From NCBI GenBank assembly GCA_030141605.1, contig JAQGDQ010000259.1, forward strand, positions 248,001 to 312,000: DNA of 64,000 nt. The letters are read 5' to 3'. The position numbers and the translations under genes are program-made. This DNA comes from Tubiluchus corallicola. Its lineage: Eukaryota > Animalia > Priapulida. Position 1 is the stretch's first letter. Every line of letters begins with the position of its first letter. The notes under the pieces are model-generated. The model saw only the letters and a program-made list of their open reading frames with translations, was not told the DNA's origin and ran no database searches. Positions 1 to 60,600 of this stretch are shown here, in pieces.

Positions 1-446
1 TCAACCCAATTTGTTGCATTCAGCCCAATGCATAGGGTGCCGCAAAACACTACAACATGCTTATAGGCAAGGTTATAATATCCACCCACTCATCATTGAT
101 GACACTGGATGAACAGTAATAACATTGACAGTACCACAGTATTACTGGTAACTGTTCTTGTAGGAATTATTTATCATCATTATTAACAGTTAACAGCAAT
201 TTTGGTTCTAGCTAACAATGCAGTGCACTGCATGGCCTAGTGGAAATATTATACTATAAAAGTATAATAGACAGACTATGTCACTACTACTACTAGTACT
301 AGTAACGTGGACTGGTAATATTGTACATCATAACTTTTGCACACTGTCGACCAATTTACCTTAAATACTAAGACTAATAAATCTCAAAATACAATGTATA
401 CTGTAAGCAAATTAATTGCCAATGCACGTAAAACCAAAATACTAAC

Positions 447-665
447 CAACTCAGCGCCAACATCAAGCACGGCTAAACCAGACAAGAAATAAACTACGCC
501 TAAATCTCCTTCATGTTTTCGGCTTTTGGAAAATTCGTAAAGCATCTGCTTTGCTTCATTAACATTTACATTTAGTCTTCTAGCTAACCATTTGTATGTG
601 ACAATTCTATTTTGATCATTAATCCATTCGTCCAAATTTTCCATCCAAACACTCTTCTCAGCCAT
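447..665 (-). CDS. POLD3: DNA polymerase delta subunit 3 (p66/Cdc27), first coding exon; gene continues left of the window
   Basis: MAEKSVWMENLDEWINDQNRIVTYKWLARRLNVNVNEAKQMLYEF matches the CDC27/POLD3 N-terminal motif (IVTYKWLS..L.V.VN.AKQML). Phase-0 donor TTG|GTTAGT at 447/446. Confidence 0.93.
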
Positions 666-777
666 CTTTCCCGCGTGAACAGCGCATTATAAAAATTCAA
701 GTCGTGGATTCGCTAAAACTAGGATGGTTTTCATTTCAATATCATTTTCATTACATGCATCGGCTTAAGGCCTATTT

Positions 778-834: not shown

Positions 835-1054
835 CTTTTTGCGGAATAAAAAACTCATGTTTTATCACAATCTGCTAAACATTGATGATTGATGAAGGCT
901 TGCAAAAAATACTGATTGAACAAGAAAAGTGGAATCATAATTATGTTATATGCTGGTTCTCTGAAGTTCCAGAATTACTAGAACAATATCAAATTAAGGA
1001 TGTCGATGTAAGTATGATTGGAAAATTTAAATGAAAGAATTATTAAGTGTAAAC

Positions 1055-1172
<118 letters not shown>

Positions 1173-2275
1173 AGGCTGCGAGAAGTATAATTGAATCCTA
1201 GTTGGAGTAAGCTGTCTAGTAGGAAATTGTGATCGAGGCTGTTAAAAGCTTTACTTAGATCTAAAAATGCTGCTGTTATATATTTATTTTTATTTAAGTT
1301 GTAACGCCTCTTTTCAGTGGCATCAATTATTGTGTCTATTGTAGAACGTAGTTTTCTAAAACCGTATTGATGATTTGACAGTAACTTATTATTTTCAATG
1401 TAATGGTTTGTTTGGTTGTAGATAACTCTTTCAAATACTTTGGCTAGTACATGAACTACTGAAATTGGTCTGTAGTTTTATGTTGCAACTAAAAAGGAGT
1501 GTTGACAAGTTGAAAAAGTAGGTAGACAAAATGGCAAACTTGGATTCTTAAAAAGAGAGTGAGTTTGAGTGGCAATCTTAATTAGGAGTAAATTAGAGCA
1601 AGCAAATTTTAAATCTGAGATAAAATATGGTTGAAGCCAAATGTAATTTTTAAGGATTATATAAATGCAACTCGAAATGTAGTGTATGTAATAAAAAATG
1701 CAAAAAACAACAGAGCATTTATTTCTGTTAAAAAAACTCAGGATGTGGGGAGTGATATTAATGTAACAGATATTAAGGACACTTGTGTTGAAAAGGCGTA
1801 CAGAGAATTAGGTCAGATATTAGAATACAGGAAAACGATAAGTATTGGCACTTTTTGGCAAGAAGAGGTGACAAAAGGTAAGAGGTGACGGTTGATAAAC
1901 AAGATTTGCTGAACGAAACAAAGATGATCAAGTGATATGGAATGGAAACTGTGTTAAATTCTCTTGTTTCCCATTGCAGAGTGAAGAGGATGCTCGTTGA
2001 AGATATCGACGAAGAGGAGATCGTTAAAGCACCTGAAACATCATCTTTCTCTCTTTACACCAAATTCGGCTTTCAGGTCGAATGCGGAGAAATGGAACTC
2101 GGCTTTACTCAGGACCCAGTTTGGTCCTACAGTGTTTAGTGTAATTAGTCTATGTGGAAAAATAGTCTCATACAGACTATAATTTTAAAGTACATTTTTT
2201 GTGTCTTTTAAACGTATTGAATTTTAATTAGTCTGCGTCTGGAATAGAAATTAATAAAATCATTTTTGATTCACC

Positions 2276-2381: not shown

Positions 2382-16136
<13,755 letters not shown>

Positions 16137-18421: not shown

Positions 18422-21400
18422 CTAATCTTTTTTCTGAACAGAAAAGCGTAGGGATTTGCCACGATATGTCTCACCTGTTATTTTACCTGTCCCATCCAAT
18501 AACTCCTGAATTTCTGACAAGATATTTTTCTGCAAGAGAAAAATATTACTGAATTGTATGCACAAAGTTTTCATGGCATCTGTCATTTGGAAGGTCTAAA
18601 ACCCTGCTTGGACTATGTAGAATATACGAGACATGTCCTTTTTCTTTTCAAGGTTTTAATGAGTTGCCTGCTTGTACTCCTGTTTATACTATATGAGGAT
18701 TTGTGGACTTATTTTTCATTAAAAACACACTACCAGGGCACCCACATCCAATGAAAAATGCATGGTGAAGGCTGTGCCGTATTATCAGAATGTACAGGTC
18801 TCAAAAAATCTGTTTGGATCAGGTTTGTCCCTGGACAACTAGCAGTAACTGACTGATTGCCAACACAGTGATACCAACCAAATGAAAGCAACCTGTAAGG
18901 AGAATCATGATTGGGTGGGCATCTGCTGAACACCAGCTTTAGAAACTAGAACCTTCCCATTTCCAATTGTAGAAAAAAAAACTAGTTCAACATCCAAGTT
19001 CCGAACTAATTATCATAGCACACCTACATCAAAAATACTAAAGGGGGGACCACAACTATCTATAAGTTGATGACTTCATATAGTGATTCTCCAATATACC
19101 TTATCTATCAAAGCACTTCTTTTGGCCAGTGTTGCTAAACTATTGAAATTAGAATGTGTGCTTATAATTTTACTAACTAGAGGTTTTCCAATTTCCGAGA
19201 AATTACTACATGTACTAGTAGATGATTAAACAGCCAAAGTGACAATAATTTAAAATATAATTTGATATAAAGGAATGTGTAATAAAATATAAATATAATA
19301 TAAAGGAATGCATAACAGCTGTTTTATATAGGCAGCTACTGGAAAACAACCGAGCAAGCTAGACAATATAAACTTATACAGTATCCCAAAGCAGCAAACT
19401 TGCTGCTAGACAAAAGTCAATAAAATCTTAGCTGCATGCAAACAGTTAGTTTCACTTAAACTGGGAGAATGTACATATAAATGCATGCTGTATTGTATAA
19501 GATTAATTGAGCTCGCAATATTTATCAGGTAACACTTGCATCTGCTTAGAAAAAACAGCATATCGTGTATAAAGGTATATCATGCGACCATACTTGAATG
19601 TAGGTAGTCCGATCGACTACTGACAAAGTATATTTCAGTTCTCTAATGCAAAAAATGGTTGTCCTGGGCGTCTGCTCTCCGTAAACCAATTTTTCGAGCC
19701 CTGGTGTAGCAAAAGGATTGAGAATGTGTATACATTATGTTTATATTACAAAATTAATCTGGGTCCTGAACATGCACATCATCAGAGACAATACGAGCGG
19801 TAGTCTGCATATAAATTCAGTACACGCAGTCGTCTATGCAGCGTGACCATTTACATCAGATCCGGATCTTAAAATCCCAGGACGGGTAGAGGATTTAAGT
19901 CACTGTGGATTATGGCTGCAAGAAGAGCCATTTGATTTATGTATCAGTTTGATGATATTCTTAGAATGAGAATCATTAAAAGATGAGAAGCAAAATGCTG
20001 ACAAAGAGACAGCTGATATGTCATATACAGCCAAACCTCATTATAATTCCCCACCTTTAGAATGCCTAACTCTCATAATGCCAAGATTTTTGGCAAAACG
20101 AACTGTCTCTTTTTGCATAAACATATAAGCACCTCGTATAATGCCAAGTTCGCTTAATGCCGAGGTTTTTGCAGTCCCAAAGTGGGTGGTATAAAGAGGT
20201 TTGACTGTATTTAAGGGAAAGGAATTATGCTGTTAACATATAATAGATTATCACTAGTCAAATTGTATTCGTAACTGTAGTTAAAATTACGATTTAAAAA
20301 CAGAAACGTACCAACAAGGATTCATTTTCTTCATCTGATTTCACATGAACTTCAACATGATGTCCTTTCTCAAGCCATTTTGTTATTTTCTTTATCTGTG
20401 TCTCCATGTCATGTTTGCTTATTTTGCTAGAAAGTTGCAAAGTTTTATCTTTTTTATGGTCTTTCTTTACTTGCTGCCGTTTTAGCTGTTCTTTATGTAA
20501 CTCTTTGCCTGTCATGAGCTTGTAAATAGGATATGGCTGAGCATCAGACTGAATTAGCACTAATTTCATTGTTTCACTGTCTGCTTTTTCTCTTGCAGAC
20601 GACTTATCCATTACACCTAGCACTTTATCATCTGAATCTAATAAAGTGATTTTTCCACTGTTCACAGCAAGATGTTCAGTAACTTTGTGTGCTTTTCCTG
20701 AATATAAACTATAATTTAAGACTATGCTCTTGCGTGGAAATATCTTGAAGTGTGTCGTTGAGCTAATGGTTGAAAAGTGAGTAGGCCTGGGCTTGAAAGG
20801 AACTCTATGTATCTTTTTGGGGAGAAAACTATACATCTGCATACAGAATGCCTTTCTAAAAAATAAAAAAAAAACATTTACATGTAATTAATTTTGTAGT
20901 CATGTTTCAAACTGAATTAAAATATAGAACTCTAATACTAATATAAAACCAATGACCATGACACAAAAGTGGCAAATTTTTGTCGTAACTCCCTGTCAAC
21001 TAGACAATAAAGTCTAAAGAATGTTATGTTATATCCCTTATTTGGAGGTGGAAAAAATCAAGCTTTTAGTTTATTGAAGGACATAATGGTAAAAAGGAGT
21101 ATCACAAAGGTTTAACTTAAAATAAAACATGCAGTAAAGCAATAGAAGAATAACATAATGTTAAGCGTTGTGTAATGATTAAATAATCTGCTATTACTAC
21201 TAATACTAGTCTAATGCGCCTGCAGCTTATAAATTAGATATAATAATATTATGTTTGTGTAAAAAATATATGTTTGCATATTAGCAAGTTTAAACTAGCA
21301 GCCTAGAAGTGCAACAATTCGTTGTCACTCGCCCTGATATAAAAAGGAGTTAGGCACCGGACGGCTAGATGGATGTATCACTGAGAACAGGTTTGATTAT

Positions 21401-23631: not shown

Positions 23632-26600
23632 ATGTTCAGTAACTCTCCGCATTTATATTTTGTTGGAAAATCACAACTTTGTCGACTATGCCACATCAGT
23701 GCTGGTCCACCAGGATCACAAGAGCTACCGCAAGAAAAATTTAAGAGCCATCAGGGAATTGAGAAAACCACATATTCATCATCATATCAAGACTGTATTC
23801 TTAAATGCAGGTATGAGTTAAAACAAATCTAAGCGTAGTCATTTATATAAACAGTTACAATGGTAAATAATACCAAATAAGTGCCAAATATAATTAAGTG
23901 GGGTGAGGTAGTCTTTCTGTATTGTTTCTTTGAATCTCTATAAATTAAAGAACTACCCAGTTACTCCAGACAGTATCAGTCAACTGTACAGAATACTGTA
24001 ATTAGAATACAATTTATAACTTACTACCTTACAGTAAACTGCATGTTGAAAAGCACTAAATTTTGCTGTAGCTACATAAAGGGTACGTACGGCCGACTAA
24101 ATGAGTTTACTTCGTACACGGTCACATACGCTATCTAAAAAGAATGGGATTTTTAAACCTGCCAAATGAACAATGAATAATATTTTGATTTTGTTTACTG
24201 TTTGTTGTTTACTGTAGCTATTTTGTATTTGTTTTTGCAGAGAACTTATTTTTCTGGAATCAATGATCATTGCCACGCCTAATTATATGCATCCTGGAAA
24301 AATTGACATTGTCATGAAAGTACGAGTGACATTAGTTTTGCTCTTCATTTATAGTAATTCGGACATAGTATTGCAAACATGAGCCAGTACATTATATTGC
24401 TATTGATATAAGGAGAAGAAGACAGTGAGGAGGAGGAAGATAAAGAAGGCGACAGTTTTTATATGTAGTTCAACGTACTACTGTCACTGTAAATTTTGTC
24501 CAGTACTAAATGCAAAGTAAACTATTTTTGATCTTTTGCGGGACCACAAGTGTGCAACATGATTTATTGTAATTAAATCAAGAGTAATGTGAGAGATTAT
24601 CACTTATCTTTTAACATGAGGACTAGTGATAGACATGTTTAGATGCACGTAGAATTTTCATTGGCAGACAGTGAAAGAAACCAGTGAGTTTTCTTTGGTC
24701 AGACACACACTAGTGGACAACTTAGCTGCCCTCTTTACCCCTTGACTTAGCTGCTCTTTTTGGTTTGGCCTTTGGCTTAACTATTCTCTTCAGTCCTTAA
24801 TAGAACTCTGAAGAGTTGGCAAGCAAACTTCGGCTTGTAATATTCAAAATTGGACAGACTTTGGTGAGTGAGCAGTGAATTCAGGTTGTGCACGATTAAA
24901 AGTGCAAGAACTAAAACAAAATAATTTAAGCATATACAAAACACAGATGCAGTCAAGCATGCATAGTCAGCGGCAGCTGAATAGTTGGACAGTTGGACAG
25001 TCAGACAAGTGCATTTCATCTGGCAATGGTAGATGTAGAATTGTTGGTTGGACAGTTTTGAAAAAGTTTGTGAAGTCTGAATGCTAGGCATTTTAGGCTT
25101 GAACGCTATTATATTATTATGTAGTTTACTCGTAATAAAATTTTAGCGCAAGAATTTTTGAGCAATTTATACAAAAATATTGCGATATCCGACTTTCTGT
25201 TTCAATAATAGCAATATCAAATTTTTGTACAGTTCGAGGTGTCTTATACTTATGAAGTAGATAGAAGCAATCAAGTAAGTTCCATGAATAGGTTTAGTTG
25301 CACTTTTTTATTAAATTCCTCAAATTATTTGGGTAAATTTTCAAGTCAAGTACTTGTAATAGATCAGTAAACCTAGGCCTTGATAAGAAATTTAGCTTAT
25401 TTTATGATAAGAAAGATAGCTTATTTTATGAATTTCTTACAAGTAAATTTGTATGCACTTTAGGAGGAATACTTCAAAAGTGGGAGAATACAGACACACT
25501 TGCAACGATTAAAACTTGAGGTGAGCTTGGTTGACAATTATAGTTATTAAGCTAATTTCTGTGTCATTACCATCTTGCTAGATAAGTTCTTCATAAAAGA
25601 AAAAGCAGGAAACAGATAAGCATGAAAATAAAAACACACAAGTTCATGTTTCCATTATTTGTCCTTGCATTATTTGCATTAAACATGATGCATTAACATT
25701 GCATGAGCTTATGAATTTGTGAGTATTTTGCTTCATAATGTGGTTGTCCAGTGACCTTTTGTGTGTTACATTTTTAACTTGAGTACAGGTGGAATCACTA
25801 ATTAGCAGAGAGTCGAATTAAGGGGCAATGAGTATCATATATATGTGTAAAATCCCTTAACGCGTCACCTTTTTAAACTTCATAGCATGCATCATTTTTA
25901 ACAGTACATGAAAACATTTTGTGGCATTTACGTTAGATTATACTGATTTAACTTTGCACATTTATTTTCACATTTCTTTAGTAATTTGAAAGTTATAGTA
26001 CAGTATTGAAACTACAGTGTAGAAAATTACAATGTAAAAAGCTGTCTTCAACTTACAATTATTGTACTGCAAGTACCCAACTTTGTAGTGGAAACGTTAT
26101 ACTTTTATAGTGCAAATTTTATATAGTTTTATATTACAGTATTTGGTGCAAGTGGAGATAGTAGCACATACACATGTAATTAAGTAGTAACAGAGAGTGT
26201 GTAGATAGGGCTTAGATAGGCAAGTACAGGCATAGGAGTAGATTATATCATTCCTCCATGGGTTTATATTGTAGTACAATGTTAAAAAGAAGGCTGGCTT
26301 GTTAGAACTAGAAGCTTCCACGCTAATTTAGCCTTTTAGCCCTAAAATGAGATGTCTTCTCTCTGTCAGGAAGGCATGGTCTGGCCGAGTGTTACGGAAT
26401 GCCAATCCAGGAATTCCGGGTTCAAACCTCAGCCATGCCAGAATTCTGAGCCATTTACCACTGCTAACAGGACTAGGCCTACTGGGCCTTATTTAGCCTT
26501 AACTGAGTACCTGGTTGTGTAATGGGCAAGGAAAAGCAAGCCACACAGACTCCTTGTGTGCCGAAGTTAGATGGCTATGCAAAATAATGCTACATACATC

Positions 26601-29600
26601 TGGTATGGGGCCATTATTTCTCTGTTTTTTTTGCTTCAGTTTTTGTACCCCACAAAATTTATGTTTTAATGGCAATAATAATATTATTATTTTATAATAG
26701 GCAACTAATCCAACAATAGTAAGTGCAGCCACGTATGAGGCTTGTTTGCAGTACACTATGCAAGCCCGAATTGCACCCCAGTGGAATAATATATCTGATC
26801 TTCTTGCACAAGGTTTGCGATTATTTGTGATTTTATTGCAATAAAAACAAAACAGTAACACAACAGAAAAAGTGACTGAACGAACATGTCTAACGTACTC
26901 TAGAATTTTTTGTCTTTACATAATATTAAATCTCTGAATTAGAAATGAATGTTAAAAGTTGCATAAAATGCTTTAAGTCATACTGTTTACTTGCTTAGTT
27001 TTCAGCCTAGTAATTGTCTTCTGTAATTGCAGGTCGTGATTTCGTTTCAAAAAGAGGACATTTGAATGCTGTCAGTAAGTAATTTAATACCCTAATTATT
27101 AAGTAAGTAGGATTTAATTAAGGTAAACAAAAAAGTTATGTTGTGGTATTTCAATTTGAAGCTAGCGTATGGTGTTTAAAGCCACTACTTTTCTAGCTAG
27201 TGTGTACTATTTCAGTTAGTGTGTGCTACTTAAAGCTATTATTTTGTAACTAGTTCGTGGTGTTTACAGATACTACTTTTTGAGCTACTGTGTGCTATTT
27301 AATGCTAGTAGCTAGTGCATGATGTTTAAAGCTACTGCTTTTGCGGCTAGTAATTTTGTAGCTAGTGTATGCTGTTTAAAACTAGTACTTTGCAGGGGTG
27401 AAGTTTGTGGTGCAGGATTCTGAAGTGTATATCACAGTACATGGCTATGTTATAAGAATTCCATTTTTATCAGTAAGCGCTCTGGTTTGTTAACTTCTTT
27501 TATACTTTACTTGTACTAAGGACTAAACATACTTTTTTAAAATAGTCAGTGTTATTGTAATTGGTGCCTCTTGGAGACTGATAATATGATGAAATCAGTG
27601 CAAGAAAGGTAACTAATACAGTCAAATCTCGTGATACCGCCTACTTTGGGACTGCAAAAAAGTTGGCATTATACAAGTTTGGCATTATAAAGGGTGATGT
27701 TATAACTAGGTTAATTTGACTGTACTTATTTTGTATTTCAGTTAAATAGCATTCCTATGAGCAGATGGGGCCGTGAAAGCTTTGAGCAAGATATTGATTC
27801 GGCTACGGTAGAATACAGTTTCAAAAGTAAATGGATTCATGTATTGCCAAGGTAAAATAAGTTGGATTGTAACACAGGTTTTGGTTTACGGGAAGCAAGA
27901 ATCTTCCCGTAGCAACATTAGAATTTATTTGTCGTTCATTTTGTAATTCTTACTTGATCACTCTTAGAAATCTCAATGAGAGCAAGTTCAGATTTCAAGC
28001 TTTTTATTACAGTATGAAAAAGGGACAGGTTGTTGGCGTGTGCCGTAGAATTCCAGAAAATAGTCACTTTAGCTCTTACAGGGATCTCAAACGACACTGG
28101 AAAAACACTGTACGTAACGGTGAACATGACAGTTTTATTAATTACACGTTTAATGCAAAACTCTGAATTATACTTATATGATGATGATGATAGACTGCAG
28201 CTACTGAGTATTTGTCAATGTTGCTTCTCATTTGAAATGTGTTACTGTTATCACTGTTTGTTTTATTACTTTGCTCATGAATTGTTATAATTTTTCACCT
28301 ACTGAAGTAAATTCAAATTTGCGGAGACAAATGGCTTTTAAGGAGAATTATTACTCTTTGTACTGCCTAATATGGGACTGAAAAAAAGTTGGTGTTAAGT
28401 GAGTTTGGCATTATAACGAGGTATATTAATACATACACGTCTATGCATTGTAGATATATTGTTTTGCTAATAATTTGGTTGGCATATAAAGGGGGTGTTA
28501 TAACGAGGTTTGACTGTATTTCTACTGATCACATTCTATTAATCTAAAAGGTTAATATGTTTATTTAATCACTAGAGGTCTTTGTTTTTTTTGTTTGCAG
28601 AAATATGATAGTTTCCTTATGTTGACTTTCACGAGTTTAGAAGTGTCAGCTGATCCCACCCTGAGATATGCTGCTAAGATATGAGATAAAACTTGTGTGC
28701 CATTCCCACATCCCTGTTTGCTAACTTTTCCATTTCCCTTTATGAAAACAGACTCATGGGACCAGAAAATGCTTCCTTGAAATGTGTCAAAAAAACTTTG
28801 TACAACAATATCTTATTAAGACGTGCAGAGGAATTATTTGAAAATTTCTAAATTTGGTGCAGAACTAGATAACAGATTTAGGAATTACCAGTCTTTAAAC
28901 CACCATACTGTACACAAGTGCACACATTAAGGGACATCATACTTACAACAATTAGCCTAACAATCAATTAGTTGAAGGAAGCATTGTGGCCTAGCCAGCA
29001 TATGAACCCAAAACATTGTGCTTTCAAGGCACATGCTCTGCCAGTTGAGTCGTTTACTATTTTCACTTGTTAACAGTATGTTACGATTTATTAACTTAGA
29101 TAAATGACTGACTTTAAATCTCGTTTAATCATCTGTTTTCTAGTATGGTTACAGATTACCTGAAGAAGAGGGATCAATTTACTATGAGGTTTATTTCAAA
29201 ATGATAGAAGGGCAACTATTCACATACCCAGATTATTGTGTGCGATCCGGAGATATACAGTATGTGCCTAGATGTGATCCAGCCCCCATAATTCAAATAT
29301 TCTTACTAGATTTGCAGACAAAGTTGCCCAATGTTTGTGGACAGTCAATGTGTTATACAAGAACGCCTCAGTTCACTTCGTCACTGCTTTACGAAGCAAG
29401 CAAGGTAGCATAGTACAATTATAAGTCGTGTAAAAGCAGATTTGTTGTCACAGTTTTCTATTTCGTTCAGTTTGCTTTGCCAAGCATGGTATATACTGGT
29501 ATTTTTCTCTTACCGAGATTTGCTGAAGTATCACTTTAATCTTTGTGGTGTTTGACTACTCTCACTATAGTCTCCTTTCAAGTGTACGCTTTTTGAAAAA

Positions 29601-32460
29601 GTACACATATTAAATTGTTTTCCAGCTACCAGCAGAGCCAAACGTAACAGCTTTACAGAAAAATGCTGTCATGGTGCCATACAGACATTACTTGAATACA
29701 ACAAATGAAAAACAACATCACGTGATGTCAACTCAATTTTTGAATACAGCATTGAATCATCAGCAGCCCTTGTCAGTAAACTCTAATGTACCCATGCAGA
29801 GTCCTAAGTCAAAGCGATTTCTATTCCTGTCTCACTGTGCAGGAAATACAGCTGCAAATTCTCAGAAGAATCTTAGTCCTACTATTATACCTCCAACTCA
29901 AACAACCAGTGCTCCAAAATTCAAACCAACATTTTTTGCTAAGAAAAGAAGTTGCTCTTCCGTCACAGTGACAGAACCAAATATGGATAAAGCGACAGCA
30001 AAACATGTGCCTGTTTTCCATCAAATGCTGAAAACCACAGGAATTCCGCAGTCAAAAAATGCTGTTAGAGCGAAAAATAGCAGCCAAAAGTCACTACACA
30101 ATGGTGTACATGCTCATGTGCAGCTTCCTGCTTCGAGTTTCTTAGCATTAAATAACGTTACAGGACCACAAACCAAAACAACCCCAATGTTTGTGAAGAA
30201 AGGTGTGTCTAATTTATGCTCTGAAAATCTAGCTGCAGCACAGAAAAAAATTATCATGCCTCAGAAAGAAATAACTGCATGTTGTGAAACAGGAAAGGTG
30301 AGTTTTCATTTAAATTCATAAATATATGTAGAGGAATTGTACGTGCTTATAATTTGTTTCGGAGTAAAAAAATCAAATAATCAAACTTTCATTCTCTTTC
30401 AACCAGAAAACCAGTTCTAGCTTATATAAAAGGATACACATACGATGAATTGAAATTTTATTGATTATATAAATACATACACTTCCAAGAACGTTTCGCT
30501 ATCGATGAACAGACGCCATTAACTTTGTGGTAAAAAGAAATCTGACTATAATAATTTTTTGGCTGTGTATGTATGCTTTTGAGTGAGAAAAACGTTTTAC
30601 AATATATTGACACTGTTTGCTTATATAAAAAATGCAGAGAAATGATGAACCCAAAGCCAAGAAGCCAAGAATGAAACCAAAAGTTCGAAATGATGTTAAT
30701 ATGGAACAGCTAGCAAAAGAAGGTCAAGTAAGTATGACTTGCTAAGTAAATAAACATTTTTTTTGTAGAAATTCATATAAAAGAGAAAAAACCCATTTTT
30801 TACCTATAAGGGAAAATGAACAACTGAGTGGTCATGTGTAGTGTGTATGGCAGCGTCATGTTAAAACAGCTCCGTGTCTGATTAGTAAATGGATGAGGAA
30901 CTGATGGGCATTCAAATTCACTATAGGCATTCGAATGTTGCTAAAATCTCTCTGCTAGATCATTCACGGGAATGAGTATAATATTCCATTTTGCAGAACC
31001 TATGTTGCTAGACACTTTGTAAAATTTACTGCTCCAAATCTATGGAATAAAATATCAATTTACTGTATATCACAACACATCGAAAATTATATGGCTTTAA
31101 AAGATATGTGAAATCTCTTCTATTCAAATCCTTCTTATAATGCATTCTCTGGGTTTTTCTGTGAAGTGCGATAGTCACAGCACATCCCGCGACTGGTTAC
31201 TTTACAGTTCATATTTTCATACATTTGCATCATGTCTCTGCTGAACTCCTTTCTATTTCATTTCTCTTTTCTATCATAGTCTGTTACTTTATCTTTACTA
31301 TTCTCTGTTTTTCTATAATTCCTTCTCTTGTTAGCTAAGCAGCTATTTTCGACTTTTCATGGTGGTTTCACAAGCTTTGCTTCTTGACCACCATGCAGCA
31401 TATATTTCCTGTTGATAAACTATTATGTAGTTTAGTACTATATTAATGTAATTCTTTTACATTTATTGTATTTGGATATTTTCCCTAACACATAATAGCA
31501 TATCAATATAATTTTGTTACAATTATCGTAACTATATAATTGATTGGATTTATAATAGTTATGTGATAATGTAAATTGTAATTATGCTGAAGTGGATGAT
31601 AAATTACAAATTACAAATCCAAATTACAATTATTGTAACTATAATTGATTTGATTTATAATAGTTATAATGTGATAATGTAAATTGTTAATTATGCTGGT
31701 GTGGATGATAAAGTATCAGAGAAAATTAAGTGATAATGAGAAAAGTTCTGGTTGTGCCAAATATTCACATTAAACATTGTCCTGCTGTTGTGCTGGCTGA
31801 CGAAAAAACAGTTGCACATCAACTGCGCATTTAAGATTGCTGAAAGATTTTTACTTTCCAGTTTCAGAAATCAGCAAGTGGTTTAAGCATGTAGGGGGCA
31901 ATAAATTTGCAAGCTATATATTATATTGAACAAAAAATATTCTATGTTCCATATTTGTCAGCTGTAGTATTAACTAGGACAGTAGTACCGCAGTTAAGTG
32001 TTACTACTAACTGTAGATGCAATTTCTAAATGGCAAAATGTTTTTCACTAGTGACATTTAAAATTAGTCATTTCAGAAAATCAGTAAGATTAAGTCAAAC
32101 ATCTCCTTCCCCCTGCAAAGGCACAAATGGGATTTGCAAAAAAATGTAAATGTTTTCCATAATAAATATTTATTTTTATAAATTGTTGAATTTGATTACA
32201 TTTCTGTGGTTGTCCCAACAGTATACGGGAATTTTCGAAGTGGCGGGTTCTATAAGACTTATTCTATAGTGTTAAGCAAATTGTTCTTTGGTTTTACAAA
32301 TTTTCTCAATTTTTAGCTGAGCAAATTGAATGCTGCTACGTTGATGTCATGGTTACAACAGAAAGGAATTACATGTAAAGCAAAAGCTAAGAAACATGAA
32401 CTGGTGGAAAAAGTACAGAGGTGCATCTCAGCTGCATCAATCAGGGCTATTGAATTATAA
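23632..32460 (+). CDS. C18orf63: C18orf63 homologue (DUF4708 family) with C-terminal SAP/HeH-like domain, about 639 aa, 12 exons
   Basis: Exons in frame at GT-AG: 23632-23810, 24241-24319, 25464-25520, 26701-26812, 27033-27074, 27396-27472, 27742-27851, 28013-28109, 29144-29404, 29626-30297, 30638-30727, 32317-32460. Motifs CLQYTMQARIAPQWN, QGRDF, WIHVLPSMKKGQV, SYRDLKRHWKNTYGYRLP, VYFKMIEGQLFTYP, FLLDLQTKLPNVCG correspond to recalled human C18orf63 (RLAPAWN, QGRDF, WCYVLPSMKMGQI, RHWDALYGYKLP, IYFKMLGERTFTYP). Confidence 0.9.
26373..26580 (+). mobile_element. tRNA-derived SINE relic
   Basis: GGCATGG..TGGCCGAGTG (A box)...GGTTCAAACC (B box)..CCATGCCA acceptor-like pairing, no intact anticodon arm, followed by a non-tRNA body. 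Confidence 0.6.
27160..27390. repeat. Degenerate minisatellite (GCTAGTGTGTG.TGTTTAAAGCTACTACTTTT-like units)
   Basis: Several imperfect units fill C18orf63 intron 5 up to the acceptor. Confidence 0.7.
27619..27722. mobile_element. MITE family A copy 3 (short)
   Basis: TA|CAGTCAAATCTC...TTTGACTG|TA; shares GGGACTGCAAAAAAGTTGGCATTATA core. Confidence 0.75.
28352..28516. mobile_element. MITE family A copy 4 (left end degraded)
   Basis: GGGACTGAAAAAAAGTTGG...GTTTGGCATTATAACGAGG...TATAACGAGGTTTGACTG|TA. Confidence 0.7.
28987..29050 (-). mobile_element. Degenerate tRNA-like SINE head
   Basis: Reverse complement GACTCAACTGGCAGAGCATGTGCCTTGAAAGCACAATGTTTTGGGTTCATATGCTGGCTAGGCCA has A-box- and B-box-like segments and a stem TGTGC/GCACA, but a damaged T loop. 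Confidence 0.45.
30990..31140 (+). mobile_element. LINE ORF2 3' relic
   Basis: Reads RHFVKFTAPNLWNKIS...FKRYVKSLL, a LINE C-terminal signature. Confidence 0.45.
31505..31710. repeat. Imperfect tandem duplication (about 110 bp x2)
   Basis: GTAACTAT..AATTGATT.GATTTATAATAGTTAT..GTGATAATGTAAATTGT.AATTATGCTG..GTGGATGATAAA occurs twice. Confidence 0.8.
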
Positions 32461-33613: not shown

Positions 33614-36600
33614 TCAATATCTATAAAGTAAACTCATTGCCTCTGCTGCTTTAATTTTCACGTCAGCTTCCGGATCTTTTAACATCAGAATTAAGGCTGA
33701 AAAACAATGGTGCATTAATAATTGGTAACTGCTATAATCAAGCGGGCACCTTTCTTTTAGTTTTACGTAAATTGCATTATAAATGATTCACTTTTTGTTA
33801 ACAGTTGCACGAAACAATAAAAACTAAAAGCATTTTCCAAAAAAAAGTTTATTTTAACAAAGTTTAATCTATGCAAAGACTGTTCATTTCTTATCGTTTT
33901 CACTGCAGCAATGTTGGCTTCAATCAAACATGTGCACTTGAAATAGAAAGAAAAAATAAAAAGCATTGTGTGTAGATAGACTTACCACCACAGACGTGTT
34001 CTTTGGATATGGATTGCTGCCGTTCCTGTGGCAAATTGCCTAATAAAAATCCTGCAAACAGCAAGACAAAACGTTAATTAAATTTGAGATCGAGAGCAAT
34101 AAAACACATTTTTATTTGGACTTTGTTTTATCAAATACTAACTGACATGGCTGCACATTAGCAACAAATGTAAGTCCGAGATAAAAACATATTTTACAAC
34201 TAGCAAGATTAAAAGGTTATTCATTTTAAAACTTATCGAGATGCGGCAATTACACAGAACATATGATTCCTCAATTTCTATGGCATCAGATACTAGACTC
34301 AGATAACATGATCCTCAGTTAACTGTTGCTTGCTGTTACACCTTACTCAGCATAATTATTGGTATATTTTCTGAGTTGCACTGTTTTTACAGCTAAAGTC
34401 AAAAATCAATGAGAATTTTCTCTTCTAGAAATAATACTGAGAAAGACAATGTGAGAATGGAAAAGCTATAAAATAATGCTTCCTAGCAAGGAGTTGGTTT
34501 TCTATCAAACTCAACGAAATTTTCCGTTCAGTTACAATTACAAAAATGTTTTCTGATTTTAGTTCTATTTTGAAATGTTGCGTTACCCACAACAGTACAT
34601 ACCTGTAAACATGGCAGCATTGGCTCGTATTTCTGACCAAGAGCTTTTGAAAAAGGCTAAATTTCCTATGACATAGAAATTTAACTTTTCCGGAAAATCA
34701 CAGATCTATATAATGTAGTAAAATGAGGTTTTCATCAACAACATAGTAGAAGTAAACTGTAACAAGTAATAATTAAAACAGCAGTGACTATGTAAAAATT
34801 AGCCTATTATTTCTATTGTCATCAGCTTAAAACAGTTATACAGTGTAGTGATTACTTTAAATAATTTAGAAATGGTGTAGCAATAATCAACTGGCTTACA
34901 TGAAACTAAAAGCGTTAATTATACAATTTAAAATCTTTTAAGACAGGTATGGTAAAAATGAGATAAAATGAAAACTGAGCCTGGATTTGAACTAGAGAGC
35001 TTTAAGTAACGAGTTCAATATCTTCAATTTCCTTATAATTTTTAATTCGTCATAAGTATCTTGTGCTCTAGTTCCGAAAGAAATTTAATGTTGTTAATGT
35101 TTAATTAATGAAAACAGTGAGTAACTTTTAATTTACCAAAACTTTAGACAAGTCGTTCATGAATTCTCCATAATGCAAGTTTGCGTCATCGAGTAAATGC
35201 TTCTGGAACATCTCATTCAACTGTTCAGAACCGACAAGTGGACCAAGCAATTTCAATGCATACTTGCATGCCTGTTTAATAAAAAAAGTGTATTAATACT
35301 TGGTTGCAAAGTAAAAATCAAATAAAAATGGTTGTTACAATTTATTTATTTAATCAGTTAAAATTATTACACATTACACATAAATTTGCACAGACTTATA
35401 AAAATACATTCTACATATAAAACTATAAGATTACAATAAAAGCACTCAAGAAAAGGAGAGGATGGAGTAAAAACTTATACTCTTTCTCCTTTTACTTGTC
35501 ATTATTTTATCTGCAAAACTCATTTTTGACATTACTATCTACAGTTATAGATTATACTTTGCATCACACACAATTACATTGTCACCCAAATAAAGGCAAA
35601 ATTTGATAAACACTGATTTACATTTACTTTCTCTCAGGAAGGCGTCCAGTATTCAATAATAATTAATTGCAACAGTGTTTAATAATTAACAATAATGAAC
35701 ACTGTTCCACCAACTAGAGTAAAATAAGAATTTGCTTAATTAACCAAGCATTTAATTTCCAAGTGAAAAAAAGTGAAACAACCACCATTCAGGTGAATAT
35801 CAGATGCAGCATCGTGCTCAACCATCACTCACAAACTTCTGTAAATTCACTAACAAGACAACAACTAAGGCCACAGCTTCCACTGACAAATGCAAACAAT
35901 ACAACTAATATTGAAAACCTTAACCACGTCTTCTTCATTGTCATTCAAGTGTAGCAAAAGACTGACTATATTAGCATGAATCTGCTCTAGAAATGGTTCT
36001 CTGGACGGCCCGTCTGCAAACCGAGACAGATTTCCAAATAATCGGAATGCCTCCACTCTCACTTCAGGCCTCTCCTGTAAATGATAAAAATGGCAGTTTG
36101 GTGCAGAAATGAATCTTAATCACAAGAGTCTGAATGATAATGAACAAATTATAACTATAAAGAAATGACAAGATACAATGTTTCAGTCCATCAATGTGAT
36201 CCATATCAAGTGAAAGAAAAAATTCACAAAAAATCAATAAAATTTATTTTTTATTTTATAACAACCACTCATCAGTAACAAACCACAACATACAACACAG
36301 AAAAGATTGCTATATTAACAACATGAATTTGACAATCCCCCAGCAGCAGTTTCCTTTCCGACTTTTTTCTGTTTAGCACACCATAAACAGATTATCACGA
36401 AGAATAAACTTTAGTTTTAAGTTTATAAAGCAACCAGTTACTACTCATTCTGCTTCTGGTTATTGTGATTAATACCATTTTGAGCTTTCTGTTTGTTTCG
36501 GTGCTGGGAATTCTGTGTTATTGTGATTTTTATAAAATCTAAACAAATTATGTTTTAGTGATCTTTTGGGTATTTTTATTTTTTCCTCTTTTGCTGAAAA

Positions 36601-48600: not shown

Positions 48601-51600
48601 ACTATTGAAAAACACACACAAAATTACAAATCATTAGCAGCATTAGAAAACAAAGAGCAATGTAGAATCTTAAATTATTACTACTGCAAGCTATTAAGCT
48701 ATTGCTAGGGGTTCCTGATTTTACTATTTTTGCCCACGAGTGTGAATTTATCGTACAGACACACAGTAGTAAAAAATTGACACTACTATAATAATAATGA
48801 GAATATTAATGTAAACTAAAAAATGTCAGAGTTAGCAAAGGCAAAACTAGGCAATACTAATTTATCACATTTTAATTTTACGCATTACAACAACATTGTT
48901 TTAATACGTAGTTTATACTTGACTTTGATGTTAAAATAACTTTTGTGTTTTATCATTATGGTTTACATAACTTTTAACTTTTAACAGAAGTACAAGAAGA
49001 CTATAATCACATAATCACATAATTACACACACTCCAGCAGTATGTATACTTCTATCAAACATATTACTGGCAATTCCTTAGAATAATAATAGTCATTATG
49101 ACTATTATAAGGGAACACTCTTGTTATTACTATTTTTATTAATAATCTTTCACAATTCTGTACTTTTTCATCAGCATACAATCAAGTCAAGCAAAATAAG
49201 TGGCAAGGTTAGGGTCAAGAACATTTGAAGAATGTGAACAATAGTGTGAAGTGGCAGCTGAGCTGAAGTCCCAGTGGAGGTGTAAAACATTTTCGAACTT
49301 TCTAATTTGGTACAGCAAGTTCTCATTTAATGGTGCCCGTGCTTAGTGACATTTCGTTTTAACGACGCTATTTTTGACACTTTTCCACTTAACACTGAAT
49401 GTTTCGTTTTTATGATGATTTTTCTCTTGCAACATAATTTGAATACTTATACATAGCTAGCCATTATTGATTTTTGCTGCTGGAACACAACTGAATGTTT
49501 CTACATTGTTTCTTGTGGAAAGCATTGTTTCATTTAGCCATGTTTGGTTTAAGGAAGCGTTTTCCTGGAATGCATTAGAAACATTAAACGTGGACTTACT
49601 GTATTGCTTTTGTGCATTTATATGACAGAAGACCACACTTATTCACACACAAATTGCACAAATTAAAATTCATTGACCTAGCTTTTTCTTTCATGCTATC
49701 TAAACTCACATAAAATATAGTAAAGTTGAAAATCCAACAAAATTCTGCTCTCCCAGATTACCTGCACTTTGTCAAACTATATATGTTGACAATTACACCA
49801 AGAAAAAATACTCATAAATTTGCCATACATATAAACTATTGTACATCTACTAAAGCTGATAATACTAAAAGGATACACCATTGAAGTGCATGCTTTCATA
49901 GCCAGCTCTCTTGTTTCAGTTGTCAAATGCTTAGTGCTCTCATTTTTGACAAAAGCCTATTATAGTAAAATAAGTTACAACAAAACATATCAGTTTTCAA
50001 AGTGAATTTTTAGAAACTCTAAGTGTAATGCTATTTTATTAAAAAAAGTTAATAAATGAATCAATTCAGAAATGTCAAACCAACAAATGTAATTTCTTAT
50101 AATAACTGCACATTCTTTAAGAAGTTACGTCTTTCCCTCAAACTAGTCAGAGAACAGACAGACAGACAGACAAACTCAATTACCATATGAGGCTAGAAAG
50201 GAATTAAATGTTTCTATGATTTTAACTGCAGGATCTAAATATAACGTAATATCATTTAATATGACTAATTGGAAATCAATCGTCACTATACACATTACAT
50301 TTTTAATAAACAAAGTGAAATGTTTAGAAATAAGTACAGATGAACTGAAACCTTTGTTAATTCTTTTGTTCAATTAGACGAAAATCTGCAAAGGATTACT
50401 GTGCTACCACCTTCAAAGCTTTTCCACTAATGTAGACATTTCTAATATCAGAAGCTTTTAAAGTTAAAGGTTAACCGTTAATTGTTATATTGAGCTCATG
50501 AAGGTGTCCAGGCTTTTGATCTGTCGAGTTGAGAAACTCCAGTCGAAAGAGCTTCGAGAACTCATCCAATGGCAAGTCGGGCATCTTGCAATGAGATTCT
50601 TACAGTTCATGAGTTGTGAGAAAGGGCTGCATATTGTTGAAAAACTGTATTATTACTACTGAGAGAACAGTGTGATCCATATGGCGCTCTGAATTTCCGC
50701 TGAAGTTCAGTTGGTGATTGAATAAAAGTCTGCCTACTAAGACTCTACATCTTATTTCTATGTTACTGTCGTCACCATAGCAATGGAGTTCCAGTCAAAA
50801 GAGCAAAGGAAAAAATTTGATAAAACTAATAATCCGGTTCATGTAAGAGCTTGCTGAGAATGGGTAAAACTCAAGCAGAAATTGAAAAGTCAAAGTGTAT
50901 AGTGCCATATAACTTTTAAAACACCCATACATAACTGAAATGATACCATTATGTTGTTGATTAAGTTCCATCGTTGTGGCATTTCATAGGAAAATTTGAG
51001 ATGATCAGGATGAAGAGCTTTGCCTAGCAATTCCACTGACTGCATTAAGCTCATCTTTGCGTGCTCCTACGTAAAATGCTCTGTTCAGTATGCAAGTTTG
51101 CATTCTTTATAATTTCAGTAACAAAAGTAATTGTAATAATCACAAAATTATTATATAAGTACTTATAAGAATAGTAACAGAAATGATAATTTGTTACAAA
51201 TTACAAGTAGAAGAAAAGCAAAAAATTACTATGTACCCACTTGTTTACAAAAAGTAATTACCTTTGCATGTTGAAAGTGTGGAACGATTCCACGCAAAAT
51301 GTGGGTATCTAAATATGAGGTAAGCTGGTCTGGTTGAGCATAGAACGCAATGTATCCATAACACAGAATCACAGTAGCTTTATTCCGGTCAGAATCCGGA
51401 ACATCAGACGTATCTATTTTATCCTGATTAAGAAATACTTTAAAGAAATTTTTAAATATGGGTAAAATTTCAAAAAAGGCTATAGTGAACACTTTAGCAT
51501 TAACTAGTATTTTATTATAAACAGTAAATGTTTTCAGATTTTAAGGTTTTTACATTTATTAAAGATTACTAAAAGCATGTAAATGTTTATATAACATTTA

Positions 51601-57600: not shown

Positions 57601-60600
57601 ATCAAGTTTCCAGTAATATTAAACCTCTACATTTTTATAAGTTAAAATATCAAAATCAACAGTACCCAAGGCTGCACTCAGGTCTAACAGCATTAGCAAT
57701 GTTATATGTTGTCTGTCCATGTTGTTCATTATATCAGAATGAATTTCAACTATTAATGGTTCAGTGTTGTGATATTTTTTATATGCTGAATTTGGTATAG
57801 AATACAGGTCATTGCGCTCAAGATGTTCTACATACTGGTTTAAAGCTGCTGACTCTATCACTTTTGAAAGAAAATGCAGATTGCTAATTGGTCTGCAGTT
57901 CTTATAGACCAACTCATGTTCCTTTTTCTTCAAAAGTGGTCTGATTACAGTGCATTTCCAAGTTTCTGGAAATGGACTTGTTGTCAATGATTCATTAATA
58001 AGATTTGTAATTGGTGCTATTAAATAATCAATACAGCCTTTAAGCAGTGTAGTTGTATTGGATCTTATAAACAAGATTTCGAGCTAGACTTCATTATGAT
58101 GGCTTTAACCTGAGATAACTTTTGAAACTGGTAAAAATTTTCAGTAATATGTTGCATTGAACATTCACTTTCAAAACATCAGTCATCCCTTCTGTTCTAA
58201 CTGTGTCATCAATTTCAGATATAAAGGTGTCAATTTTGTCAATAAAGTATTGCCCAAATTCTACCCCCAAGCTTTGTTCATCGTCGTTATCAGGGAAAAG
58301 GATGTTATTTTCTCCTTGGATTAGCTTTGAGATTAGACGATACAGCTTCTTTTGATCACGGCCACAATATTGCATTTGTTCTGAATAACAATGCTGCTTA
58401 GCTTCGATGCACCACTCACAGACATAAAGCATTTTCTCTTAAAGTCAGCCAAACTTTCAGCATCTTCACTTTTCTGCCAGCTGTTCCCAGCTCTTCTTCA
58501 CTGTTTTTTCCACAATTTCAGGTTATCGTTGTATCACATCAATGTTGCTTTAGGAATTATAACGTTCTGGATTTTTGTTGTGTGCAAGTCCAGAATACCT
58601 TTTTAAAGTATCGTCATATAATACGGCTAGCTCATTAGTGGATAAATTTTCACTGTCAGAATTATTTAAGCGGCTATTTCGAATGTCTTTCTTGAAATCT
58701 TCCATATTTATGCCTTTAATTTTCCTAAATATAATCTCTTTTATTTCAGCCTCAGATTTTTGCCAATGTAGTTAGTTATACCAATTATATCAAATCAGTT
58801 ATACCAATAAGAACCAAGCAATTTTGATAAAATATACAAGCAGTACACTCTTCGTAAAAATTAACAAGTAACAACGTAATCTAGAAATGACTGCAGCTAA
58901 GCATTTGATGCAATCTCTACTCATATTAAAAGTACCTGTTGGATTCCATTCAAAACCTTTTCCTCGCTGATCTCTTTGAAAAAATATTATATCCATTTTC
59001 TAACTGGTAACTACTACAGTTCAATGATCAACATATATCGTAAATTAAAACTCATTGCTGACTTAACAGTAAACATAGCTTGGGGTACCACAAAACTAAC
59101 AATCTTATGACTACTTTGTTTACAATTAACATAGTACATTATATTATAAAACGCTTGACAAACTGTTGACTGGGATGTACAATATTAGCAATATAAAGTA
59201 ATATATATATTTATAAATTAAATCGTCAGACTATGCATTAATATGTACCTTTTCAGCTGTTTGAGATGGCTGGGAACACTGTCTGATCATAAATTCAACC
59301 ATTTGATCCCCTCCTTGTTCTCTAAGATAATCGTGGTGAGCCAGGGCCACTATCACTTGAATAAACATTTTCTTTACCTAAACAATGCCATTAAAATATA
59401 CAAAATTTAGCAGCCGAAATGCTAACTTCAACTAAATATAATTAACTAGTCTACTAGTTTATTATTTTTACATGTGTCATTGAAATACAGAAAGTTAAGC
59501 AGCTGAAAAGCTAACTTAAATGAAATAAAATTAACCAGTCTGGTAGTTTATTATTTTTATGTGTGTCATTGAAATACAGAAAATTTAGTAGCCAAAAAGC
59601 CAACTTAAACTACACAAAATTAAACAGTTTGATAGTTTATTAATTTCATGTGGTCAGTCAAATAAACTGGAAATTTTGCCACCTGAAACAGAAGCTTGGT
59701 AATTTGTAAAACTGTTGCCAAAAGTTAAGTATAGCAATAATTCAAAACATACTGATAACTACCTTATTATTGGATTCTGTCATTGCCATTTTTAAACCAG
59801 ACAAAACTACCGATTTTCTTTGGCCAATTTTGCTGTCTGTAAAACAAAGACAGGTAGAATAAATATACATTTTGATGGCAACAATACATGCTATAAATAG
59901 CACATTTTCTGTCAATCAAAAAAATTAATATTAAATGGGTAAGCGAGTGAGTGTATGGATAAGAAAACAATTACTGTAATTGGTGGTCAAAAGAAAGGTT
60001 TATAACTGGCTGCTGAAAAGGTTAGTGGGGGCATAATGTGTAAGTTAATGAGCAAGTTAACATGTGCGGGACAGTTATTCTGCAGAACACAGCAAATCTG
60101 ATTATTTTTTAAGAAAAATTACTGCCATGTTACATCTAGCATCTTGCTATCATTTTCATTTGAAAGCATTTCTTATACAATTAGAAGATTAATTCTCATA
60201 TCTGTAACATTAAATTTATGATTATGCTGATGATACAGCTTAATCAATTTGACAATGCAAACTTTGCAGAAATGATAAGTAATTTATGTAGCCATTCACT
60301 TAAAAATTGATAAGAAAATGTAAATTTCAAAAAATGTACAAACTATGAAAATGATAAAAAAAACTAATAGTCTATATATCAAGTGTGTTGCGAACCTGCT
60401 GCGTTAATGAGGTGGCGAAAGACACGTAATGCACCTATTCGAGCCTTCTCGTTATTGACTTCCAACTTCTGTATAAGGTACGATAATACCTTATCACATG
60501 ATGCTCTTGCTGTAACGAAATTTTCACTTTAATGTAAGTTACATTAAACTGAGCAGAGCTGAGATAGACAACACGAGTCAAAAGCAAAAAACAAGAAAAT

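Follow-up and report, generated by a model that had tools for sequence, protein, structure and literature searches.

The 64,000-nucleotide (nt) window analyzed here (Tubiluchus corallicola, Priapulida; GenBank assembly GCA_030141605.1, contig JAQGDQ010000259.1, forward-strand positions 248,001 to 312,000) contains a C18orf63/DUF4708 gene and raises the question of what kind of protein this family represents. An initial annotation, made from the sequence alone, had taken the gene to encode a truncated Argonaute joined to a Ku70-type SAP domain. The gene itself is an ordinary family member, and the novelty lies in what the family is. Models of homologues indicate that its N-terminal region very probably has the fold of the whole Argonaute front lobe, consisting of the N domain, linker 1 (L1), the PAZ domain, and the start of linker 2 (L2). 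Because the MID and PIWI domains are missing, C18orf63 is not an Argonaute by membership, yet on these models it is built like the front lobe of one.

Fold of the N-terminal region

By sequence comparison the gene in the window is an intact C18orf63/DUF4708 orthologue. The Pfam DUF4708 profile (PF15813) matched 4 of 10 exon-bearing open reading frames (ORFs), in profile order and three of them above the cut-off (exons 3 and 5 left out). Identity to oyster C18orf63 was 43% over amino acids (aa) 49 to 317, with 47% for the best homologue, and identity to molluscan C18orf63 reached about 50% over the last 60 to 70 aa.

The evidence for the fold comes from models of homologues, not of the window's own spliced protein. 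An AlphaFold2 model of residues 1 to 328 of the oyster homologue, built on 134 sequences, had a predicted local distance difference test (pLDDT) score of 94.5 and a predicted template modeling (pTM) score of 0.91. When this model was compared with the PDB, Foldseek returned 126 matches at E ≤ 0.001 (best E, 1e-7), and the best 47 of the 126 comprised 44 Argonaute or PIWI structures, two CDK8-module chains, and one chain without a protein name; KmAgo came first by E value. VIA-align, which searched 48,161 chains, placed exclusively MED13, Argonaute, PIWI, or Argonaute partner chains in its top 12 rows, and the first unrelated row, at rank 13 (Z score, 7.2), covered the N domain only. In the first VIA-align run, KmAgo (Z 9.2) and a SiAgo partner chain (Z 8.9) followed two CDK8-module D chains. 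The second run aligned MILI residues 225 to 569 (Z 10.8, 279 residues aligned), KmAgo residues 4 to 307 (Z 9.9), TtAgo residues 11 to 310 (Z 9.4), and human Ago2 residues 42 to 406 (Z 8.0), each alignment spanning most of model residues 9 to 328. Isolated PAZ and Dicer structures aligned to model residues 166 to 277 alone (Z 5.7 to 6.0), and N-domain-only matches covered residues 14 to 110. Neighbors of the lobe in the ESM Atlas, found by features and structure, carry PAZ, ArgoL1, and ArgoN, and in an Atlas cluster named C18orf63-like, Pfam PAZ is present in 25% of members.

Since full Argonautes align over most of the model and isolated PAZ domains over a single segment of it, the N-terminal region should, with high confidence, be regarded as an entire predicted front lobe. 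The N-L1-PAZ order proposed by the initial annotation is recovered in the homologue model: isolated PAZ structures fall on the region that it had called PAZ, and the segment that it had called L1 lies in the beta-hairpin between N and PAZ. Its proposal needs amending in extent, as the start of L2 is included too, and in the nearest solved structure, which is MED13 and not a small-RNA Argonaute. The similarity to Argonaute that it anticipated was likewise seen in structure and not in sequence profiles.

Several results weigh against this assignment. Identity to Argonautes is 6 to 12%, the root mean square deviation (rmsd) is 4 to 8 Å, and the Foldseek TM score by query is 0.23 to 0.44. Profile searches of PDB sequences with three alignments gave no Argonaute link, returning low-complexity or chance matches; Pfam PAZ, ArgoN, and ArgoL1 were absent from 65 scanned members; and when the family was compared by hhalign with a single long Argonaute from an archaeon, the probability was 0.2%. 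Profile searches with single exons produced chance matches only, and Foldseek against viral structures found nothing at E ≤ 0.001.

Comparison with MED13, Argonautes, and other relatives

The top matches in both VIA-align runs were MED13-type chains, with Z scores of 13.4 and 12.3 and then 13.6 and 12.3. The human CDK8-module chain D (8tqc_D), which we infer to be MED13, aligned over 269 residues (Z 13.4, rmsd 4.9) and its yeast counterpart (7kpv_D), identified as Med13 (PMC12477606), over 266 (Z 12.3, rmsd 5.4). The highest Foldseek TM score by query, 0.44, also belonged to MED13. Yeast MED13 has an Argonaute architecture with a disordered region after PAZ at residues 313 to 814 (PMC7810384), and the disordered region of human MED13 spans residues 350 to 1069 (bioRxiv 2024.07.01.601608). 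Because the C18orf63 lobe occupies residues 1 to about 330 and is followed by a linker with a median length of 283 aa, the protein resembles a MED13 cut within its disordered insert. The resemblance is suggestive only, since the Z gap to MILI is less than 3 and KmAgo leads by Foldseek E value. The two proteins share the predicted fold over the whole lobe, a long disordered stretch after it, and a nuclear role, which for C18orf63 is a proposed one. They differ in that MED13 goes on to L2, MID, and PIWI and has a channel that it blocks itself, whereas C18orf63 ends in SAP or in the linker; identity is 9 to 12%, and there is no profile match between them.

PIWI/AGO proteins and long prokaryotic Argonautes (MILI 9ij4, KmAgo 8xk0, TtAgo, and Ago2 4ola) share with C18orf63 the N domain, L1, PAZ, and L2 start in one order (Z 8.0 to 10.8). 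In contrast to them, C18orf63 has no MID 5' pocket, PIWI RNase H fold, or catalytic tetrad, and it adds a basic linker, P-x-F repeats, and SAP. As the initial annotation had stated, MID and PIWI are absent from the window protein and the homologues examined: only linker and SAP follow the lobe, no MID family occurs in the 65 scanned members, and a PIWI RNase H fold, whether it carries DEDX or not, is absent from the window protein, the 120 listed homologues, and the 65 scanned members. The partners of short prokaryotic Argonautes (AfAgo-N, SiAga1, and SPARTA/SPARDA) are also stand-alone front-lobe proteins without MID-PIWI (Z 6.2 to 8.9). However, they are prokaryotic, lack PAZ, and are encoded beside a MID-PIWI partner, whereas PAZ is the most conserved part of C18orf63. 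Dicer PAZ domains (Giardia 2ffl, DCL3, and DCL4) match over model residues 166 to 277 (Z 5.7 to 5.9), but the match is limited to PAZ. The RNase III and helicase domains of Dicer are missing from C18orf63, and no RNase III family was found in the listed homologues or the 65 scanned members.

Among the titles and abstract openings of mainly open-access papers, we found none that assigns C18orf63 to the Argonautes; automated domain databases may already label the region as PAZ. The main text of a 2025 Argonaute survey does not mention C18orf63, and a literature search for DUF4708 by name was empty. A half-Argonaute that ranges from cnidarians to mammals and is reported in germ cells at the onset of meiosis would bring to eukaryotes the stand-alone front lobe, which has so far been demonstrated in split systems of prokaryotes. 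Its closeness to MED13 offers a soluble single-chain model for asking whether the MED13 Argonaute lobe binds nucleic acid.

Conservation of the PAZ domain

Sequence-weighted conservation is concentrated in PAZ, where 17 of 78 core columns are at least 80% conserved; the corresponding counts are 6 of 97 in N, 7 of 48 in L1, and 3 of 43 in L2. The conserved PAZ columns are mainly aromatic, and W236 is invariant. The window protein retains F238, Y241, H247, W248, Y252, Y254, Y264, F269, F277, Y279, P280, and C283. Human Ago2 PAZ binds dTdT overhangs and grips the 3' overhang via H271, Y311, R315, H316, K335, T337, and Y338 (PMC5896489). H247 and Y252 of the window protein are spaced five apart like Y311 and H316 of Ago2, a correspondence of spacing and not of residue-level superposition, and both columns are 100% aromatic. 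It is plausible on the model that the conserved aromatics form a 3'-end pocket, and we consider binding of 3' ends of some nucleic acid, whether DNA or RNA, somewhat more likely than not.

The C-terminal tail and the linker

The C terminus is predicted with moderate confidence to fold as a three-helix SAP/HeH domain. Exon 12 scored 28.3 bits against Pfam HeH (cut-off, 28.9; E, 1.5e-6), and among the 65 scanned members the Pfam matches at E ≤ 0.1 were to HeH in 11, Ish1 in 10, and SAP in 3. A model of the chiton homologue tail (pLDDT 75) has helices at residues 23 to 28, 37 to 46, and 57 to 74. Foldseek found nothing for it at E ≤ 0.001, though many rows were SAP/HeH proteins. The best VIA-align match to the tail was residues 46 to 108 of PDB 8fn4 chain 2, a segment of the trypanosome RNA-editing RESC-A (Z 7.6); T4 endonuclease VII (Z 5.7), the Ku70 SAP domain (1jjr; Z 5.5, rmsd 2.0, 51 of 54 residues), the Rho N-terminal domain, and several SAP/LEM domains followed, every row at a Z score below 8. 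In Ku70, SAP sits on a disordered linker, and its three helices are preceded by a basic loop (PMC9399289). The C18orf63 tail as modeled is alike in all three respects but shares 16% identity with it, and C18orf63 lacks the Ku core. The SAP/HeH fold named in the initial annotation, as a two-helix module, is therefore seen in the homologue model, with three helices and an overlay on 51 of the 54 Ku70 SAP residues; the specific tie to Ku70 falls away, as RESC-A and T4 endonuclease VII match equally well or better.

SAP was detected by a family hidden Markov model (HMM) in 166 of 242 homologues; the remaining 76 include many fragments and isoforms. It is present in both amphibians, both cnidarians, and 8 of 9 echinoderms but missing from all four clams of the Mercenaria/Dreissena/Ruditapes/Mya group and all four hymenopterans. 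Because of this patchy presence, SAP seems from the sequences to be an accessory part that was lost more than once. A tick homologue, P0109, has two SAP-like matches, at aa 289 to 325 and 823 to 862, which may reflect a gene-model fusion. Of 167 proteins with SAP, 127 have a basic K[KR]x[KR] stretch close to where the domain begins.

The linker encoded by exon 10 is probably disordered, and 201 of 209 homologous linkers are net basic. The initial annotation had described this exon as rich in S, T, P, K, and Q and of low complexity. The bias is real (43% S+T+P+K+Q over 224 aa versus 32% in aa 1 to 340), but the segment is biased and basic rather than strictly of low complexity. A repeated [KR]-hydrophobic-x-P-x-F motif in the linker is new here. 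In the form [KR][ILVF]-x-P-x-F it was present in 141 of 209 linkers, where shuffled sequences gave 4.4 (maximum, 12), the homologues sharing ancestry and their counts not being independent. It is frequently present in two or three copies and is kept in an otherwise poorly aligning region, including in amniotes without SAP. A BRCA2-type FxPP (PhePP) reading of the motif was rejected, as it was not enriched (16 of 209 linkers versus 21.6 in shuffles). The motif may bear a loose resemblance to the Ku-binding motif R-x-x-P-x-W. A complex prediction that paired the lobe with a linker segment containing the motif was uninformative (score, 0.01).

Proposed function and alternatives

Expression of C18orf63 has been reported in the germline. 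The human gene is listed among new meiosis genes of the fetal ovary (PMC12055976) and among oocyte genes common to human and chicken (PMC9570461), falls with RAD51AP2 in a pre-pachytene meiotic component (PMC9792524), and is upregulated in preleptotene and downregulated in leptotene-zygotene (PMC12081002). Single-stranded DNA (ssDNA) is the preferred ligand of the SDE2 and RAD18 SAP domains (PMC9399289).

We tentatively propose, at less than even likelihood, that C18orf63 would act in the germ-cell nucleus as a guide-free, noncutting clamp for ssDNA 3' ends, most likely the tails on meiotic chromosomes. In this model the conserved PAZ aromatics would form the 3'-end pocket, the basic linker and SAP would give a low-specificity hold on nearby DNA, and the [KR]-hydrophobic-x-P-x-F repeats would dock a partner protein. 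Without MID there would be no anchoring of a guide 5' end, and without PIWI there would be no slicing; the protein would therefore read an end and not a sequence. DNA is placed slightly ahead of RNA because of SAP, the preleptotene timing, and the fact that DNA-guided Argonautes match equally well.

A number of points count against the clamp. The last PAZ strand of Argonautes reads T-Y-L-P; here it reads T-Y-P, and its register relative to the Argonaute strand is ambiguous. The SAP/HeH/LEM matches of the tail include protein binders (MANF-BiP and SLX4-MUS81), and SAP is missing in all nine named amniote homologues, amniotes being the source of all the expression data. We take mouse Gm17266 to be the C18orf63 orthologue. 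In a list of testis genes that were knocked out, Gm17266 is among those dispensable for spermatogenesis (PMC12653000, citing Suzuki 2024). The PAZ pocket of MED13 is occupied by its own L2 (PMC7810384), and MED13 has been argued not to bind nucleic acid in the Argonaute manner (PMC12477606). If the mouse knockout is of the C18orf63 gene, the role of the protein is accessory, at least in male mice.

The same fold could serve an RNA ligand, which we consider possible though doubtful. The lobe would then be a chaperone or decoy that works alongside the PIWI pathway, with SAP tethering it to chromatin, and would hold or shield RNA 3' ends, whether of piRNAs, siRNAs, or nascent transcripts. Among small-RNA Argonautes, MILI gives the best match; PAZ domains bind the 3' ends of guides (PMC12477606), expression is in the germline, and the tail matches include RNA-associated proteins (RESC-A chain 2, the Rho N-terminal domain, and a histone-mRNA 3'-exonuclease). 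However, a stable hold on a guide would need the missing MID, the reported expression peak is preleptotene, among recombination genes, and DNA-guided prokaryotic Argonautes match about equally (Z 9.4 to 9.9).

A MED13-like protein scaffold is unlikely. Nucleic acid binding would have been lost, the lobe would provide a docking surface within a transcription or chromatin complex of the germline, and the aromatics would be core residues or a peptide pocket. MED13 leads both VIA-align runs and the Foldseek TM scores and has the same order of lobe and disordered region, its PAZ touches protein (PMC7810384; bioRxiv 2024.07.01.601608), and short motifs are repeated in the C18orf63 linker. Against this, the Z gap to MILI, at about 5 Å rmsd, may reflect domain angles, KmAgo is first by Foldseek E value, and profile searches gave no sequence link to MED13. 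Conservation is moreover centered on PAZ aromatics located in the helix and strand, a pattern that would be expected if the ligand is fixed, for instance a nucleotide.

The ssDNA clamp can be extended into an evolutionary scenario, which we consider improbable as a whole. C18orf63 would be the sister of MED13 and represent one more lineage derived from Argonaute in eukaryotes, having broken off in the insert, lost MID-PIWI, and gained SAP; it would act as a guide-free ssDNA 3'-end reader at meiotic breaks, with its motifs recruiting a repair partner. If true, this would place an Argonaute fold directly in animal meiotic recombination.

It is very unlikely that the lobe is one half of a split Argonaute whose other half is a separate MID-PIWI-only protein, bound in trans, on the pattern of AfAgo-N, SiAga1, and APAZ proteins with short prokaryotic Argonautes. 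Partner chains do match the model (9lgw_B, Z 8.9; 8pvv_C, Z 6.2; SPARDA/SPARHA/SPARTA, Z 6.2 to 6.8), the first strand and the L2 start are retained, and AfAgo provides a shown precedent (PMC10954474). The known partners, however, lack PAZ, here the most conserved part; L1 and L2 are less conserved; and no MID-PIWI-only protein occurs among the neighboring genes scanned in the window. We are aware of no animal protein that consists of MID-PIWI only. The least probable explanation is that common folds, a ferredoxin-like one and an SH3-like barrel, were assembled without Argonaute ancestry, with hardly any likelihood: many unrelated proteins match the N domain alone (Z 5.6 to 7.2) and the sequence signal to Argonaute is nil, but four parts stand in Argonaute order over 250 to 280 residues, including the wrap-around first strand and L2, and the Atlas C18orf63-like cluster contains members with Pfam PAZ.

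With one pocket, named residues, and one linker motif, an uncharacterized human fertility-candidate gene gains precise tests.

Distribution of the family

A search with the oyster homologue returned 139 proteins from molluscs, annelids, echinoderms, arthropods, a coral, and vertebrates, and all 120 of those listed carry PF15813 as their sole precomputed domain. A representative-library search gave 450 matches; among those listed, the weak ones that were checked (n = 10) were from insects, a jellyfish, and a leech, with one having a gene-model name only and three having no name. Among 993 candidates, no homologue of 1,326 to 3,785 aa was found that would represent a fused or longer form, which is weak evidence. 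No prokaryotic relatives were found by tblastn in genome contigs.

Two ESM Atlas clusters without names lie nearer the lobe than the best named Argonaute (TM 0.54), one from Chlorophyta (680 aa, TM 0.74) and one from Nitrososphaerota (580 aa, TM 0.62). They may be non-animal relatives. By sequence, PF15813 matched none of five genomes examined for the Nitrososphaerota cluster. In a further search it matched 10 of 301 at E ≤ 0.1, none above the cut-off and 7 of the 10 with stops, and ORFs near archaeal Argonautes scored at chance level. The archaeal PIWI-type genes themselves (L047, L048, and L061 to L066) include one frame of more than 720 aa (L048) and several short ones of about 230 to 450 aa with adjacent ORFs.

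Gene structure and genomic context

The gene is intact with 12 exons, as the initial annotation had it (Table 1). Every predicted junction has a GT donor and an AG acceptor, phase is kept, and the joined exons (1,920 nt) encode 639 aa plus a stop, with no internal stop in the frame. All motifs quoted in that annotation, KAKKPRMKPK among them, are found in the translation. With 242 homologues as tblastn queries, the window contains a single C18orf63 locus. Two sequence runs aligned to the gene proved to be contigs, and none of the 15 joints listed, of 24 in all, lay at a predicted intron. Exon 1 is the least secure part of the gene model, as the family HMM match begins at aa 48 and leaves residues 1 to 47 outside, yet it is plausible because BLAST alignments to several homologues begin already at aa 2 to 6.

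Table 1. Coordinates of predicted features in the window (positions count from its first nucleotide)
Feature	Position	Strand	Details
C18orf63/DUF4708 gene	23632..32460	+	12 coding exons, 639 aa; ORF profile matches, translation, BLAST, tblastn
Exon 1	23632..23810	+	aa 1-60; first lobe strand and start of N domain
Exon 2	24241..24319	+	
Exon 3	25464..25520	+	
Exon 4	26701..26812	+	
Exon 5	27033..27074	+	
Exon 6	27396..27472	+	
Exon 7	27742..27851	+	
Exon 8	28013..28109	+	
Exon 9	29144..29404	+	
Exon 10	29626..30297	+	basic linker, 224 aa; net charge +0.087 per residue over linker
Exon 11	30638..30727	+	
Exon 12	32317..32460	+	
Predicted Argonaute N domain	23719..26772	+	aa ~30-129; exons 1-4; model and N-domain-only matches
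Predicted L1 linker	26773..27457	+	aa ~130-177; exons 4-6; invariant P131, W133, N134; beta-hairpin quoted in initial annotation
Predicted PAZ domain	27458..29254	+	aa ~178-288; exons 6-9; PAZ-only matches, conservation
Predicted start of L2	29255..29383	+	aa ~289-331; in exon 9; model and structural alignment
Linker P-x-F motifs	29905..30192	+	overlapping pair at aa 435/439, then aa 467 and 525
Nuclear localization signal-like basic stretch	30653..30682	+	KAKKPRMKPK; exon 11
Predicted three-helix SAP/HeH domain	30701..32433	+	aa ~584-631; exons 11-12; Pfam, homologue model, structural matches
POLD3/Cdc27 exons	387..686	-	Pfam scan of neighbors
Reverse-transcriptase fragment	1046..1477	-	
Myotubularin exons	7082..15660	+	
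Mitochondrial IF3-type gene	20297..20887	-	Pfam IF3_N, IF3_C
ORF	33617..33787	-	
Maestro HEAT-repeat (MROH) gene exons	51232..51540	-	
Reverse-transcriptase fragment	57622..58083	-	

The neighboring genes are of housekeeping type and unrelated to C18orf63; the nearest listed upstream, the mitochondrial IF3-type gene, is oriented away from the C18orf63 start. The minus-strand ORF just downstream had no Pfam match, and we take it by impression to be an armadillo/HEAT repeat. The two reverse-transcriptase fragments are probably decayed long interspersed nuclear elements. Three intronic stretches of the gene (27612-27690, 28383-28520, and 31000-31650) have matches to many contigs, high depth, and loose ends; they look like dispersed repeats, the first two alike.

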